From contig OZ241863.1 in the NCBI GenBank assembly GCA_965203055.1, positions 576,001 through 640,000 on the forward strand: 64,000 nucleotides of DNA, given 5' to 3'. Source of the DNA: Spirochaetia bacterium (lineage in GTDB: Bacteria; Spirochaetota; Spirochaetia; SZUA-6; Bin103). Each line of letters starts with the position of its first letter. Position 1 is the stretch's first letter. Below, piece after piece: positions 9,001 to 27,000 of this stretch. The position numbers were made by a program.

Positions 9001-12000
9001 GGACCTGGGCCGCGCCTCGGTCAGGGACTGGGAGATCGACGCGGACGGGAGCCTGTCGTTGGCGAGCGTCTTCTCCGGGATGCGGCTGACAGTTCGGGAC
9101 CCGCGCGAGCAGTTCTTCGCCGGCCTCGGCGTGCTGCGTACCGTACTGGAGGAGTCGATCGACCCGTTCGGTCCTATGCCGCCGCGTCCCGCATGGCAGG
9201 TCTACGCCGACGCCCACCGGCGGGAACGGGCGGCGCTCGCGGCGCTGCTGGACACCGCCGAGCGGTTCCCTACCGCCGGCGGCCGCACCGCCGGGTACCT
9301 GCGCACCGACCGCATCGGCGCGCTCCGGGCGCTCTACCGCTCCGGGTGCGACGTCGCCATCGCCTATGCGCCCGCGTTCCACCCGCCGGCCGGCGGCGCT
9401 CCGATCCGCAAGTTCACGATCGCCGGGCGCGACGGCCTGCGCGTCGACGGCTTGCTCGGCCCGCTGGCCGAGCGCGAGCCGGGCTGGGGCGGCCCCGCCC
9501 ACGGCACGATCATCGCCTCCCCGCGCCGCGGCACCGACCTCGACCCCGCCGAGATCAAACGCCTGGTGCGCGAGCACCTGTGAGGCAGGATCGGTGTACC
9601 GCGGCGGTCAAGCGCACCGCGGGATGGTTTACGTGGTTGGTTTCAACCCGGTCCGTGATTCGTTCCTGAACCAGTCATAGGTTGGATAGTGAATGGGGTT
9701 TCGAGGGTCGTTTGCTGCGTAGATCAGCATGGCGCGCAGCTCCCGCATGGTCCGATCGACGCGTGTTCGAAATGGTTCGGTGCGGCGGAGAAGTTCCTGA
9801 TTCAAGGCTTCATCTTCCCGGACTTCCGTAAGGTCCGCAGATTCGCTTCCGCGATAGCGGGCGCTGGGATCGGTCCGTATCTTCAACTTCGTAATGCGCA
9901 GGTGAACGGAACCGGCGCCGTGTGGTTTGGCGCCTCCCAGTTTGTGGCGCAACGGGCCGCGCAGAGTCACGCCTGCTTGATCGCTGGCGCGGCCGACGGC
10001 TGCCGCACTCAGCTCGACGGTACTCTGTTCTTCGAGTACCAGACAGTAGACGAGCAGGTCGAGTTCCTCCTCCCGCAGGTTCTCGAAATCCACGGTGAAG
10101 CGAAAACGGGTGCCCGGCGGTGCGGGTGTTACCGTCGCCGTCTGTCTTATATTCGGGTGCGGCCGCGTGAGCCGGTCCGCCTCGACGCGGTGATGATAGA
10201 GCTTACGCCGGTTATTTCTCGGATAGAAAGACTGGTGGGACCGTTTGGGCTGACCGACGGTAACAGGGTAAGCCGGCCACTGGACTGGCGCGAATGGCTC
10301 GGCCAGTTCGGCGTCGCTGAAGCGAACCAGTCCGGCAAAGGCGTTGCTGCCATCCAGATAGCCGAACATCCTGGCGACGACGTCGAGGCTCGAGTCGCGT
10401 CGCGCCATAGCCAGTTGATGCTGCCGGTCGACGCTCGCCTCACGGAACGGTACGGCGGCATTGCCTATGATTTCAGCCAGGGATCGGATGGCGCCTTTGA
10501 GAGACGTGGCCGGGAGATATGGCTGAGGGCCGCCGCGCCGGCCGCCGGCCGCGTTGCGTACTATATGGCTTACGAACTGCCCCTTACCGTCGCCGACGAA
10601 CAACGGCGTCAACGCTTCGAGTTCGCACCAGACACGGCCGGCGAGGCCATCAAGATGATGGTGATAGTGCGGAACGTCGTGCTCCACAGCTCGATCGCTG
10701 ACGGTGACCCAACGGTACGGATTCCAGAACCGTTCGCGTTCAGGCATCGGGACCTCCGTCCGCGGGCTCCAGGTCGCACAGGCGCAGGAAATGCGGCTCG
10801 CCTACGTCGTCGCGCCACTGCTCGATGACCACCTTGACGTGGCGGCTGCCGCCGGCAATCGGATAGCGGAAGCGATGTGGAATACGCAACTCGATCCATT
10901 CGCCGGGGCTGGCTTCGGTTTGCTGTCCCCACAGGTAGTAGCGCTCCCGCTTCGGCTGCAGCCTGTCCAGGATGTCGGAACAGTCCGCCAGTGCACCGTC
11001 CGTCCAATTGGCGTCGCCGAGAAAGACGGTGCGCCAGCAGGTTTCGCCAAGCGACGCAATGACGCGCCAGCGCAATTCGCCGTCGGGCGCGAACAGTCTC
11101 CCCGCCGTGGAGCGGGACAGGCAACCGCCCGTTCGTTCTGCGATCGGCTCGCGGCCGGCGCCGCACCAATGGAGATCGCGTTCGACGCCGCGCCACCAGT
11201 CGAACGCCCAGCCATCGGCCGCCTCCAGCCAGATGCGGCGCGAAGCCGTGCCGTTGGGCGGCGGATCGAGATTCGTAATGAGATCCAGAAATCCGTTGCG
11301 CGTCAGGTCAGCCGCTCTCAAGCAAGCCACGGTCATGCTCCCGCCCGCTGTCGAGGTTGCCGGTTGGGCGCCTGCCCTCCAGGTCCTCCGTGCCAGCGCA
11401 GGAATGCTTCGAACGCCGGCGTCAGTGACTGCAATCGCACGGACCAGTCGTCCAGAACGTACTCCTGGCGCAGACCGCGCGGCGCCGCCGCCGGCAACGC
11501 AACCGGATCCGCCGGCGTCCAGTCGTGCAGGCGGTATGCCTCCCGCTCCCCGGTCGTCGCCAGTTGCCCGATGCCGGCCAACGACTGCGCGGGATGCAGA
11601 TAGGCCAGCCGGAAAGACGCCACTTTGGCGCGTACTCGCCCCATGCCTCGGCTGCGCCCCGATCCCACGGCGATCATCTCGTCCTTCAGATCGGCGAGCA
11701 GCAGGTTGAGCCCCGCCAGTTGCCAGAGCTCGAAGTTGGTCAGCCGAATGCGCGCCTCGAACTTGCCCCCGACCACCGCCTGCAGGTCGAACAACACGCC
11801 TTTCACGGTGCCTCCCGTGAAGCGGTCTATGCCCACGCCGTTGCGAGACTCGGGCGTTGGAGCGCAGCCCGGCAGCGGGTACGCATCGCCGATGCTGAAC
11901 CGGCCCGCGAACTTCAACGAACCGAACAGGCGGCACGCTGCGCACGAGTCGGCGTACCTGGCGGACGCAGGATCAGCTTCCTCGCCGCGGGAACGATACC

Positions 12001-24000: not shown

Positions 24001-27000
24001 CTATTGAAACCAGGCGGAACGCGATGCAATCGTCATCCCCGCGTGGAACGGTCACCAGCCGCGCGAAACGCGCGGCCCTATTGAAACTCATGGCGTCGGG
24101 GAGAGTGGCGTCCGCCCGCCAGGAAAGTCACCAGCCGCGCGAAACGCGCGGCCCTATTGAAACTTGATCGCCTTGTCGATTGCTTCTACGACATCATCCT
24201 GGTCACCAGCCGCGCGAAACGCGCGGCCCTATTGAAACCTCCTTGACCTGCTCATCCGTGATCAACCCCATGTTGTCACCAGCCGCGCGAAACGCGCGGC
24301 CCTATTGAAACTTTAGAGACAGAAAAAGAACCTGAATAAACTACATACCGTCACCAGCCGCGCGAAACGCGCGGCCCTATTGAAACACGAATCTTGTTCG
24401 CCTTATAGGCCCGCTGAGTGGAAGTCACCAGCCGCGCGAAACGCGCGGCCCTATTGAAACACTGCGAATGGGAGACGATGTCTTCATCGACCTGATCGGG
24501 TCACCAGCCGCGCGAAACGCGCGGCCCTATTGAAACGCTTCGGCGATCTTGCCGTTGCCGAGAAACGTCTTGGCGGTCACCAGCCGCGCGAAACGCGCGG
24601 CCCTATTGAAACTTGTACTCTGCAAGCTGATCTAAGATCTCTGTTCGACGTCACCAGCCGCGCGAAACGCGCGGCCCTATTGAAACCCGACAGGAACGTT
24701 CGTCTCATTGAACTTGGCCGCCGAGTCACCAGCCGCGCGAAACGCGCGGCCCTATTGAAACGTGGGGACGCCGATCCACACTATGGCGCGGCAGGCGCGG
24801 GTCACCAGCCGCGCGAAACGCGCGGCCCTATTGAAACCTCCTTGAACGCTTTCGGTATACGTATGGGCAATACGAGTCACCAGCCGCGCGAAACGCGCGG
24901 CCCTATTGAAACGGTATCGGAAGTTTCGCCGCCCCCGGTGGGAGGTCACCAGCCGCGCGAAACGCGCGGCTCTATTGAACTCCTTCGGCGCCGCAAGGAC
25001 TCCGAACGGATTCTTGAGGTCACCAGCCGCGCGAAACGCGCGGCCCTATTGAAACCTGGGCGCGGTCACGATCACGTGCTCGCCGCTATGCGGTCACCAG
25101 CCGCGCGAAACGCGCGGCTCTATTGAAACTCCTTCGGCGCCGCAAGGACTCCGAACGGATTCTTGAGGTCACCAGCCGTGCGAAACGCGCGGCCCTATTG
25201 AAACCTGGGCGCGGTCACGATCACGTGCTCGCCGCTATGCGGTCACCAGCCGCGCGAAACGCGCGGCTCTATTGAAACTCCTTCGGCGCCGCAAGGACTC
25301 CGAACGGATTCTTGAGGTCACTAGCCGCGCGAAACGCGCGGCCCTATTGAAACCTGGGCGCGGTCACGATCACGTGCTCGCCGTTATGCGGTCACCAGCC
25401 GCGCGAAACGCGCGGCTCTATTGAAACGCCGCCCGCGCCGCGCACACGCACGCCCACCCGGCCGCCTGTCACCAGCCGCGCGAAACGCGCGGCCCTACAG
25501 GCGTCGATGAGCGATAGAGGTAAAGATCGAGAATGTCGACTGGACATGGAATGTCAATCTCAAAATCTGGCCTGACAAATGATCAAGAAGCTCTGGAGGC
25601 AGGTAGAGATGTTGCAGTGTATGAGCGTTGAGATGATCCAAGAGATGGCAAAGCATCGCCGCCTTTTGGAGGTCTACCGACACATGGTTTCTCGACTACT
25701 ACGAGAAGGTTGGTCAGAGATGGTGGATCACATTCTTTGTCATCGTGGCAGCCTTCTTAATGGATTGTAGGAGGTTGCCAAGAATTGGACAAGATGACAC
25801 GCGAAGTATTAGCGAATGCGTATCCAATCCCGATGTCATTGCCAGTGTGAAGAGGCGGAGGAGGTGAGCGAGGCATTGTTTTATGCAAGGGAAGAGCCTA
25901 TCTACAAGAGTCTTCTTACCAAAGAGGATCTCAAGGAGCTCCGGAAACAGTATGCAAAGAATGTTGAGAGGTGCAAGAAGGAAGCAGAAAGGCCGGATGT
26001 GAAGGAGTTTTGGGGATGGGTAGCCTTGGGAATAATCTTCCTTGTGGCCTGCTACTTCTTGGCAGGGTGTTCAGAGCTCATGCCATACCAGGGTTGAGAC
26101 TGAAGTCTACAAGAGTGATGCACGCTGTGAATGCGTACTTCACTATGGCGCTACAGATGGTACCTTTGTAGGATGTGGGAGGGTTGTTCAGATCGAGACT
26201 ACAAGAGGGTCGGAGTATGGGAGTGAGGCGTATGGAGCAAGGGCGTTTGTGAGTAACGGATATGTTCGCATAGTAGGCAACACTCGAATAGTGTTATGGG
26301 TGAATACCTCTTGTTAGTCGAACCCCTTAGGAGTAGATGATGGAACGTAGAGTCAGGCTTGCGATAGACACTTTTGGGTATTGGCGATTGCCCTTCCGTC
26401 TATCGGTATATTGATTGCGGTCTTGGATTTTAACTTTGAGAATAACGGGCCTTTCGGAGGGGTAGACCTTAAGGGGGATGTCTGTTAGCTCAGGAGGATT
26501 TCCTGGGCCAATCGACGTACCCTAAGACTTGTAGGAAAGACGTTGGTCTGCGTGAATAGGAATCAGAAATATACTACGAGTCGCGCGGGTGCGCGATCTG
26601 CCAATCCTGGACCAGTCCACCATCCTGGTGCTGGCGCGGCGCCGCTTGGCCTGCCCACAGTGCGGTCCGAAACTCGAACACCTGAACTGGCTGGCTCCCT
26701 ATGCCCGGGTCACCAACCGGCTGGCCGAGAGCGTAGCGCAGATGTGCGCAGTGCTGCCGATCAAACACGTAGCGCAGCACTACGAGCTGCGCTGGGACGC
26801 GGTGAAGGAACTGGATAAGGCGTACTTGCAGCGCACCCTCGGACCGGTGCAGTTGCAGGGAGTCACCCAACTGGTGATGGACGAATTCGCGCTGCGCCGC
26901 GGGCATCGCTACGCCACAGTCATCGTCGATGCCCTCACCAAGCGCGTGCTGTGGGTTGGTAAAGGTCGGCGCCGGGAAGACATACGGCCATTCTTCCAAC

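Follow-up and report, generated by a model that had tools for sequence, protein, structure and literature searches.

The window, a 64,000-nucleotide stretch of contig OZ241863.1 from a Spirochaetia bacterium, carries in order a type III-D operon, the activator gene g00513, the adaptation genes cas6-like/cas1/cas2 and a CRISPR array (Table 1); an earlier note on this DNA had placed these four elements correctly. Searches against Pfam, NCBIfam and PADLOC found in the operon Csx1, Cas10, Cas7 proteins, Csx10/Cas5, Cas11, two Csx7 proteins, a Csx19-like protein and a TIGR03986 RAMP. Cas10 does keep its GGDD motif, as had been claimed (residue 326), and Csx1 bears the motifs DLTHG and RNSLAH. The product of g00514 had been called csb2-like, and the similarity holds, but it is confined to the C-terminal half of Csb2, the Cas5-Cas6 fusion of type I-G (positions 221-448 of 449 in PADLOC PDLC01778, E 2.5e-43; positions 252-492 of 492 in NCBIfam TIGR02165). 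This half is presumably the Cas6 part, and from these profile matches g00514 probably encodes a stand-alone Cas6-like pre-crRNA nuclease. The array runs in the same direction as these genes, with 14 of its 21 repeats identical. A putative 26-codon ORF ahead of g00514 occupies the place of small ORFs of 60 and 72 residues in two related loci, those of genomes G011 and G015.

Table 1. Features of the locus, in window coordinates; positions within the effector operon are those of maximal ORF starts, and several of these ORFs overlap.
Feature	Position	Strand	Remarks
Type III-D-like effector operon	9629-18896	-	Pfam, NCBIfam, PADLOC
TIGR03986 RAMP	9629-10747	-	profile matches
csx19-like	10740-11945	-	profile matches
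csx7 (two genes)	12303-13283, 11333-12379	-	profile matches
cas11	13548-13958	-	profile matches
csx10/cas5	13946-15313	-	profile matches
cas7	15181-15924	-	profile matches
cas10	15921-17627	-	profile matches; GGDD motif
csx1	17670-18896	-	CARF-HEPN; PADLOC E 1.5e-123
csx1-facing sigma-54 promoter motif, TGGCACGGAAATTGC	18966-18980	-	predicted; 5' end 84 nt from csx1 ATG (18896)
Conserved block, TCGCAAnAAATCTTCCA-N5-GTAACGnnnGTTAC	19125-19160	+	candidate activator-binding site; conserved in CRISPR-linked loci
Degenerate activator-facing sigma-54 promoter remnant, TGGCACGGCTGCAGGC	19194-19209	+	-24 half intact, -12 half lost
g00513	19262-20761	+	499 aa; CARF (1-~175), sigma-54 AAA+ (180-~430), HTH; RtcR_PspF2 family
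Stop-codon sigma-54 promoter motif, TGGCACGATTATTGC	20762-20776	+	predicted; first base directly after g00513 stop codon
26-codon putative ORF	20834-20914	+	strong RBS; stop overlaps g00514 GTG (GTGA)
g00514 (cas6-like)	20911-21642	+	Csb2 C-terminal half only
cas1	21635-22678	+	type I-G-like
cas2	22694-22969	+	type I-G-like
Uma2-family putative endonuclease gene	22982-23677	+	between cas2 and array; Pfam PF05685, E 5.6e-17
CRISPR array	23898-25427	+	21 repeats of 37 nt, GTCACCAGCCGCGCGAAACGCGCGGCCCTATTGAAAC

The identification of g00513 as a sigma-54 enhancer-binding protein is upheld by Pfam matches to Sigma54_activat (E 1.9e-72) and AAA_lid_14 and by an intact reading frame encoding GESGTGKE (Walker A), GAFTGA and LFLDE (Walker B); the host also has rpoN (363 bits, over the cut-off). 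The CARF fold proposed for its N-terminus stands as well. AF2 modelled residues 1-178 from 13 sequences with a pLDDT of 81.4 and a pTM of 0.79, and Foldseek returned 23 PDB matches at E<=1e-3, led by Csm6 (6tug), Can2 (8bao), Card1 (6xl1) and Sis0811, with a single non-CARF protein (SUMO E1) among them; Csa3 (2wte) is a further neighbour at E 2.3e-3. The description of the protein as an RtcR-like regulator was right as to an activator, but its placement needed correction: residues 3-497 match the PADLOC family PDLC01995 (RtcR_PspF2--CARF_AAA_HTH) over its full length (E 5e-194); the activator copies of G011, G018 and G006 match this family as well. g00513 is a CARF-AAA+-HTH sigma-54 activator of this catalogued family and no orphan.

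The RtcR_PspF2 family usually heads restriction-modification (R-M) or other defence operons, its usual cargo being type I HsdR/M/S, methylase-AAA fusions, type IIG enzymes, OLD/AriA-like ATPases and DruH. Of 70 loci that could be evaluated, spread over many phyla, 53 have a sigma-54 motif at -18 to +4 of the activator stop codon, 36 of them exactly at +1; removal of duplicates of loci already seen leaves 43 of 59. The motif is present in 12 of the 14 relatives' loci, and among metagenome loci with 42-55% identity it lies at -7 to +7 in 11 of 18. By this distribution of motifs, a predicted stop-codon promoter is a hallmark of the family. Copies of the activator in G014 and G001 are frameshifted or truncated.

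Within the window, the motif TGGCAY-N5-TTGC occurs only twice, on either side of g00513; shuffled windows gave 0.26 expected sites, with at least two in 5 of 100 shuffles. The genome of 4.56 Mb holds 18 such sites, the number counted before, and three others precede glnA, amtB and the ABC-transporter gene urtA, again as reported. The perfect extended form TGGCACG-N4-TTGCW is found four times in the genome, and two of the four flank g00513. G010, the only syntenic III-D locus, has an equivalent of the csx1-facing motif. A third, activator-facing motif is intact in the corresponding region of G010, G011 and G015; in the window this promoter has been lost by deletion, so the region has been rearranged. 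In G011 and G015 the same region contains a DUF1232 gene. The two flanking promoters claimed for g00513 are thus supported as predicted regulatory elements, the stop-codon site being kept family-wide, but the effector-facing site occurs in only two of the four members of the clade described below.

Besides the window, 3 of 80 related loci show a link to CRISPR; 0 of 25 loci of the metagenome set show one, and none of nine further carriers from Thermodesulfobacteriota has Cas10 on the same contig. The CRISPR-linked loci (the window, G010, G011 and G015) form one clade (SH-aLRT 100) with a long stem branch (0.38), inside an 18-row clade (99) whose remaining members are 12 methylase-AAA loci and two without called cargo. 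Judged by this phylogeny, the CRISPR link is a rare offshoot of single origin, in one bacterial family. All four species keep the activator together with cas6-like/cas1/cas2 (75-86% identity), and in all four these genes lie behind a sigma-54 promoter motif: the stop-codon site in three, and in G010, where the genes are fused, a site 38 nt before the activator. The effector modules are III-D (window, G010), III-B Cmr1-6 (G011) and fused-Cas7 genes (G015). No motif faces the Cmr operon of G011, which also encodes a CARF-RelE protein, and none scoring at least 18.9 faces the effector genes within 14 kb upstream in G015. Full synteny had been noted in one of 14 relatives; G010 is indeed that syntenic III-D locus, but 3 of the 14 carry cas6-like/cas1/cas2 beside a type III module, of differing subtypes. 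With the adaptation genes linked to a sigma-54 motif in 4/4 members of a single clade, the predicted sigma-54 wiring of g00513 to the CRISPR locus is well supported, even if the effector-facing motif is present in only 2/4.

The conserved block that lies between csx1 and g00513 in the window is present as a single copy in each of the four CRISPR-linked loci, always 55-180 nt away from the closest sigma-54 promoter, whereas the remaining 11 loci examined yielded no copy; it is a candidate site for g00513 binding. A search for such a site at the stop-codon promoter identified none.

Among known systems, g00513 most resembles the RtcR-like CARF-NtrC-HTH regulators of R-M and other defence genes, with which it shares its three domains and its place ahead of defence genes. 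For these regulators sigma-54 activation of downstream genes has been predicted (Makarova et al., 2014, PMC4012209; Bell et al., 2024, PMC11090510). The available text of the two accounts maps no sigma-54 promoters, and the 2014 account puts the RtcR-like family with those for which proximity to cas genes is not typical. g00513 differs in its cargo, a type III CRISPR locus rather than R-M, CoCoNuT or Druantia, and in having a second, divergent promoter. With RtcR of E. coli and Salmonella, the rtcBA activator, it has in common the CARF-AAA+-HTH architecture, sigma-54 dependence and CARF as regulatory input. In contrast to RtcR, it lacks rtcBA neighbours, and its promoter abuts the activator stop codon, whereas that of the rtc locus lies in the divergent intergenic region. 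Its score with the RtcR model NF038308 is 342.8 bits (cut-off 650), in an alignment that starts only at residue 47, and the Pfam RtcR N-domain gives no match at E<=0.01. Csa3 is likewise a CARF transcription factor inside CRISPR loci: an archaeal and bacterial CARF-wHTH protein described as regulating adaptation genes, feeding back on interference and binding cA4 (PMC9704534, PMC8844856). However, Csa3 is a classical HTH factor, sigma-54-independent and without an AAA+ module, and mostly linked to type I-A; cA4 binding is a feature of Csa3, whereas ligand binding by g00513 is only putative.

What signal might g00513 sense? Its CARF motifs are identical in CRISPR-linked and R-M-linked copies apart from Q29K and L129I. 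No Cas10 palm2 match over the cut-off was obtained in 20 of 28 carriers, nor in 6 of 9 relatives with only a non-clade copy, although a missing match in a MAG is no proof of absence. These results speak against the cyclic oligoadenylate (cOA) ligand proposed earlier, and the signal is most likely a family-wide one, not a Cas10-specific product. For RtcR, 5' tRNA halves with a 2',3'-cyclic phosphate, or RtcAB, have been put forward (PMC7790460, PMC10159003, PMC9650030); by analogy, a 2',3'-cyclic phosphate may be the ligand of g00513, although the score of this protein below the cut-off of the RtcR model weighs against the analogy.

The main alternative is that cOA made by the GGDD-bearing Cas10 binds the g00513 CARF domain, such that target-RNA recognition would switch on effector and adaptation transcription in a bacterial sigma-54 counterpart of Csa3. 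The locus does combine a cyclase-competent Cas10 motif with Csx1, a cOA-type effector, and G011 adds the CARF-RelE protein. The top structural neighbours of the domain are all cOA binders or ring nucleases (Csm6 with a cA6 analogue, Can2 and Card1 with cA4), next to Csa3. At the sequence level, too, the N-terminus matches cOA-type profiles over its first 48 to 140 residues: CARF4 (CARF-PD-D/ExK; residues 1-48, E 8.7e-12), CARF1 (4.6e-6) and Csx1/Csm6 (7.1e-6). Beyond the long stem branch of the clade, a single charge change in the domain sets the clade apart: Q29K, which adds a charge to the GxGPxAQA motif. Position 29 is K in 4/4 clade members, while 91% of the 67 others have Q there; K also occurs in P0019, P0028 and P0031. 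The otherwise shared motifs, the R-M-linked copies in genomes without a Cas10 match and the rarity of the CRISPR link (3/80, 0/25 and 0/9) tell against it. So does the stretch of seven residues after strand 4 (S-P-G-T-P-A-M), which has no K/R; Makarova et al. (2014, PMC4012209) saw in this trait a sign that RtcR-like CARFs bind another ligand. We regard cOA control as possible but doubtful.

From the observed domains, motifs, their conservation and the phylogeny, we lean instead towards an activator with a family-wide signal, captured once by a CRISPR locus, whose promoters drive adaptation and effector genes. A type III CRISPR-Cas locus would have taken up an RtcR_PspF2 cassette with its built-in stop-codon promoter; this promoter would drive cas6-like/cas1/cas2, possibly reading into the array, and the second would drive the csx1-cas10 effector operon. 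We infer that the unliganded CARF domain holds the AAA+ ring inactive until an infection or RNA-damage signal releases it, upon which sigma-54 RNA polymerase would open both promoters. Cleavage by Csx1 (HEPN) and Cas7 could create such RNA ends, giving a positive feedback loop. Spacer uptake and CRISPR effector genes would then probably be inducible through two sigma-54 promoters, by a sensor-activator captured from a family that usually switches on restriction enzymes.

It is unlikely that g00513 controls the cas6-like/cas1/cas2 promoter only, the csx1-facing motif belonging to another activator or being a by-product of rearrangement and the effector operon being mainly sigma-70-dependent. 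The effector-facing motif is indeed limited to 2/4 clade members, as against 4/4 for the downstream module, and a deletion did remove the activator-facing promoter. However, the csx1-facing site has the perfect extended consensus (one of four in the genome) at a normal distance of 84 nt, is kept in G010 despite diverged flanks, and has the conserved block 130-180 nt upstream, the usual enhancer distance. Least plausible by far is a decaying relic with a non-working activator or promoters, beside CRISPR genes by accident of the shuffling common in defence islands, as the damaged copies in G014 and G001 and the deletion upstream of g00513 might suggest; against this stand the intact ORF with all catalytic motifs, the conservation of activator and cas6-like/cas1/cas2 across four species, two perfect promoter motifs and an array in which 14 of 21 repeats are identical.

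The region proved to be as the earlier note had described it, with its genes and motifs in place on either side of g00513, the gene for a CARF-AAA+-HTH sigma-54 activator (see table). The effector module encodes Csx1, Cas10, a small Cas7, Csx10/Cas5, Cas11, two Csx7 proteins, a Csx19-like protein and a TIGR03986 RAMP. PADLOC profiles identified Cas10 (E 5.6e-65), Cas5_IIId (8.7e-42) and, weakly, Csx19 (1.8e-5), and the Cas7_IIId and Csm3 profiles were matched as well. A Cas10 with a cyclase palm, a Csx10-type Cas5, Csx19 and multiple Cas7 proteins mark the module as type III-D, the NCBIfam scores for Csx10 and Csx19 lying under their cut-offs. 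Since the Cas10 palm carries GGDD at residue 326 and Csx1 (CARF2-HEPN profile, E 1.5e-123) has the motifs DLTHG and RNSLAH, the locus looks competent for cyclic oligoadenylate (cOA) signalling; an N-terminal HD motif is absent from Cas10. Judging by its best profiles, the processing and adaptation module on the other side of g00513 looks type I-G-derived, yet the effector is type III-D. The repeat of the CRISPR array ends in ATTGAAAC, and an Rfam search of 18500-26000 at E<=0.1 returned no match.

Features of the g00513 locus in window coordinates, with gene starts taken as those of maximal ORFs
Feature	Position	Strand	Basis or remark
Type III-D-like module	9629-18896	minus	Pfam, NCBIfam and PADLOC matches
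Sigma-54 motif, effector-facing	18966-18980	minus	TGGCAY-N5-TTGC match
Shared intergenic block TCGCAAnAAATCTTCCA-N5-GTAACGnnnGTTAC	19125-19160		candidate enhancer, predicted
g00513, sigma-54 enhancer-binding protein	19262-20761	plus	ORF intact
Sigma-54 motif, from +1 after the g00513 stop codon	20762-20776	plus	TGGCAY-N5-TTGC match
g00514, C-terminal (Cas6-like) half of Csb2 only	20911-21642	plus	profile matches
cas1, cas2	20911-22969 (span g00514 to cas2)	plus	best profiles Cas1g, Cas2g
Uma2-family putative endonuclease gene, between cas2 and array	22982-23677	plus	PF05685 E 5.6e-17; PADLOC PDC-S03
CRISPR array, 21 repeats	23898-25427	plus	

The product of g00513 is not an orphan, since it matches the catalogued PADLOC family RtcR_PspF2--CARF_AAA_HTH (PDLC01995) from end to end (E 5e-194; residues 3-497 cover positions 2-479 of the 481 in the profile). 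Its AAA+ domain (PF00158, E 1.9e-72) retains Walker A, Walker B and GAFTGA motifs (GESGTGKE, LFLDE and KGAFTGA), and the closest solved relative is NifA (9qq6_C), aligned over residues 180-487. At the C terminus, a match to HTH_8 (PF02954, E 8.4e-4), a candidate Fis-type HTH, scores 19.5 bits and so stays under the cut-off of 22, and this region is covered by both the RtcR_PspF2 profile and the NifA alignments. As modelled, residues 1-178 are a Rossmann-like CARF domain: the AF2 and Foldseek figures behind the earlier prediction of this fold could be reproduced (pLDDT 81.4, pTM 0.79), and of 23 Foldseek matches at E<=1e-3 a single one is not a CARF protein. Csm6 (6tug), Can2 (8bao), Card1 (6xl1) and the ring nuclease Sis0811 lead these matches, with a probability of 1.00 and TMq of 0.45-0.64. 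When 8000 candidates were scored against the CARF domain alone, at least 2268 proved to be relatives (E<=1e-3), and 460 loci with it were found among GTDB species genomes. Assignment to RtcR proper, the sigma-54 activator of rtcBA, was rejected: NF038308 gives 342.8 bits, and its equivalog cut-off is 650. At this locus neither rtcB nor rtcA adjoins g00513, and both neighbours are cas genes.

The window contains two matches to TGGCAY-N5-TTGC, and shuffles predict 0.26. Both have the GG-N10-GC spacing of a -24/-12 promoter and the consensus TGGCAC-N5-TTGC, and the genome encodes rpoN. We obtained the same strict count as reported previously, 18 sites in the 4.56 Mb genome; the perfect extended form TGGCACG-N4-TTGCW occurs four times, with two of the four flanking g00513. 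Three other motif sites precede glnA, amtB and urtA, so this organism uses the motif at genes classically under sigma-54. Among 20 sequencing runs listed as containing the stretch, none is recorded as RNA.

The position of the plus-strand motif, directly behind the stop codon, turned out to be a hallmark of the family. Each related locus was turned to the direction of its activator gene, and the surroundings of the stop codon were scored for -24/-12 motifs; the hallmark, a sigma-54 promoter abutting the activator stop codon, is derived from this analysis, and a literature search returned no paper describing such a promoter. The motif was present in 12 of the 14 relatives' loci, nine times in strict form and three times with one change in the -12 element. 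Taking the best 80 of the 460 GTDB loci, 70 of which could be evaluated, we found it between -18 and +4 of the stop in 53, of which 36 have it exactly at +1 (TGA|TGGCAC), elsewhere within -60 to +120 in 5 and not at all in 12; once 11 evaluable loci that duplicate earlier ones are removed, the fraction is 43/59. Metagenome loci at 42-55% identity carried it within -7 to +7 in 11 of 18 evaluable cases. Judged by this conservation across loci, the predicted stop-codon promoter of g00513 belongs to the cassette by inheritance, is strongly conserved and is not a chance match.

Elsewhere, the cargo behind the stop-codon promoter consists of defence genes, among them type I HsdR/HsdM/HsdS, a type IIG enzyme, OLD/AriA-like ATPases, DruH, and a methylase-specificity-AAA fusion of 1250-1490 aa with an ATPase of 535 aa. 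This cargo fits two published predictions. RtcR-like CARF-NtrC-HTH proteins frequently accompany restriction-modification (R-M) systems and were predicted to act through sigma-54 (Makarova 2014, PMC4012209), and RtcR-like genes stand at the head of CoCoNuT, type I R-M and Druantia superoperons (Bell 2024, PMC11090510); the relevant passages of the two papers map no promoter for these genes. In two relatives the activator gene itself is damaged, by a frameshift in G014 (locus L019) and by an internal deletion in G001 (L025), while both loci have kept the promoter motif and, downstream, the methylase-AAA gene.

Cas genes adjoin the activator only in the window and in three other species, G010, G011 and G015, which account for 3 of the 80 best GTDB loci. 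Thirty loci came from a scan of metagenomes, none of them above 57% identity; five were short partial matches and were left out, and none of the other 25 had cas matches or an array. No further CRISPR-linked member was found in 92 genomes of the order. Thermodesulfobacteriota include 10 carriers among 401 genomes; 7 or 8 of these carriers have a Cas10 palm2 match above cut-off, never on the contig of the activator in the 9 newly found genomes, and in G064 a Cas10 lies at a distance of 64 kb. In a quick IQ-TREE phylogeny with midpoint root, the four CRISPR-linked activators group together in a single clade (SH-aLRT 100) with a long stem branch (0.38), nested in a clade with support of 99 whose other members have methylase-AAA cargo. 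The simplest reading would be that the activator was recruited once, from an ancestor of R-M type, the direction being taken from the nesting in the midpoint-rooted tree and not from an outgroup.

All four clade members have cas6-like, cas1 and cas2 genes directly 3' of the activator, and three retain the stop-codon promoter. The exception is G010 (locus L030), where the activator stop abuts the cas6-like start (11485-11488) with no promoter between them. Here a promoter lies 38 nt ahead of the activator, back-to-back with a sigma-54 motif facing csx1 (about 9286-9447), so the whole unit would be autoregulated. The effector modules differ: the window and G010 have type III-D with Csx1, G011 a complete divergent III-B operon (Cmr1-Cmr6) with a CARF-RelE protein, and G015 fused-Cas7 genes, a reverse transcriptase (RT) and, at a distance, a Cas10, all running in the same direction. 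The CARF-RelE-type protein of G011 (502 aa, L028:1234-2742, PADLOC CARF_RelE E 1.9e-31) is encoded beside Cmr6. In G015 the RT gene (L029:11913-13100; RVT_1 E 2.8e-32, PADLOC RT E 1.5e-81) lies between the activator and cas6-like/cas1, and from this placement RNA-derived spacer uptake may also be under the stop-codon promoter.

An effector-facing sigma-54 motif occurs among the four only in the window and G010; no sigma-54 motif faces Cmr1 in G011, and in G015 no motif scoring >=18.9 lies in the 14 kb upstream. With the effector-facing motif confined to the III-D loci, the processing/adaptation module appears to be the robust target of the activator, and the effector operon is a predicted target in III-D loci. 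G010, G011 and G015 also have a sigma-54 promoter facing the activator itself, and in G011 (L028:9712-10008) and G015 (L029 about 9700-10000) a 98-aa DUF1232 gene stands between the two. At 19194-19261 of the window, the DUF1232 gene and the -12 element are deleted, and TGGCAC (19194-19199), all that is left, now runs into the 3' end of DUF1232 with the ribosome-binding site (RBS). A MAFFT alignment of the four upstream regions was, owing to rearrangements, uninformative apart from the common RBS/3'-DUF1232 stretch.

The intergenic block at 19125-19160 recurs in all four clade loci, with 55-180 nt between it and the closest sigma-54 promoter; the other 11 loci gave no match to it. We consider it a candidate enhancer, to which the activator would bind. 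It has no second copy within or after g00513, and third-position entropy over 51 non-redundant genes did not fall clearly across the final 60 codons (1.12-1.24 vs a mean of 1.38). An inverted repeat, GCGCGnCACTAyCT..CGCGC, is centred near -118 in 10 of 54 loci; it also codes for A-R-H-Y-L-x-R-A and so is not separable from protein constraint. Thus, neither block copies, codon entropy nor inverted repeats identified an enhancer for the stop-codon promoter.

One candidate ligand of the CARF domain, implied in the earlier note, is cOA made by Cas10. All close structural neighbours of the domain in the Foldseek search bind cOA, residues 1-48 match the CARF4 profile (E 8.7e-12), Q29K, a substitution of this clade, adds a charge inside a conserved motif, and every clade member lies by a GGDD Cas10, accompanied by a CARF effector in the window, G010 and G011. 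However, CRISPR-linked and R-M-linked proteins have CARF motifs that vary little or not at all: W-I-G-x-x-D-L follows strand 1 and L-T-F-H-L-S-P-G-T-P-A-M-x-A-V-W follows strand 4, and the other two are G-x-G-P-x-A and P-T-x-F-G-E. Only two positions, Q29K and L129I, separate the clade from residues kept in at least 85% of the others. Cas10 co-occurrence holds at the window locus and not across the family: a Cas10 palm2 match above cut-off was missing from 20 of 28 carrier genomes and from 6 of 9 relatives with no other copy than one outside the CRISPR clade, these genomes being MAGs in which a missing match is not proof of absence. Moreover, cOA-type CARFs have a conserved K/R just after strand 4, and its absence was taken to point to another ligand in Makarova 2014 (PMC4012209); S-P-G-T-P-A-M after strand 4 (101-106) of g00513 is without K/R in its seven residues, and two basic residues, K122 (invariant) and R124 (nearly so), come later, in helix 4. 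Weighing these points, we regard direct cOA sensing as unlikely. Equally doubtful, with Q29K as the candidate change, is that the CARF of this clade was retuned to bind Cas10-made cOA. Were it so, type III target recognition would directly fire g00513 and raise the effector complex, with Csx1, as well as the genes for spacer acquisition. If cleaved RNA ends are sensed instead, cleavage by Csx1 and Cas7 would supply them at this locus. Either route would share one logic, in which type III activity leads to more effector and adaptation gene expression.

In how it works, g00513 is closest to RtcR and the R-M-linked RtcR-like activators, its family being distinct from RtcR proper. In its predicted biological role, the nearest protein is Csa3, a CARF-wHTH regulator of adaptation genes that binds cA4 (PMC9704534, PMC8844856), and a 2022 review names Csa3 as the sole characterised non-nuclease CARF effector (PMC9704534). 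Our literature search found no paper on a sigma-54 activator of a type III CRISPR locus and none naming RtcR_PspF1 or RtcR_PspF2; the 2020 CARF classification and its supplements may list such neighbourhoods. To our knowledge, the control of type III CRISPR-Cas expression and spacer uptake in bacteria is poorly understood, and we know of no test of the ligand of the widespread RtcR_PspF2-type defence regulators. The locus offers a compact, testable switch made up of a single activator, a pair of sigma-54 promoters with perfect motifs and the candidate enhancer, which would render adaptation and interference inducible. It is also a natural experiment on the ligand, the same sensor standing before R-M genes in Cas10-less genomes and here beside Cas10 and Csx1. 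Whichever of the two proves to be the ligand, cOA or the ends of cleaved RNA, it would account for the switching on of hundreds of defence islands. If retuning to cOA were true, type III signalling in bacteria would here have its first direct transcriptional output, and interference would be tied to adaptation in a self-amplifying way.

Two activator sequences, from a Vicinamibacterales MAG (L056) and a Thermoplasmatota archaeon MAG (L057), are identical, which is probably a binning artefact and not an archaeal family member. A small ORF of 26 codons lies between the stop-codon promoter and the cas6-like gene of the window (20834-20914), its stop overlapping the GTG of g00514. At the matching place lie an ORF for a 60-aa glycine-zipper protein in G011 (L028:11576-11755) and an ORF of 72 aa in G015 (L029:11573-11788).
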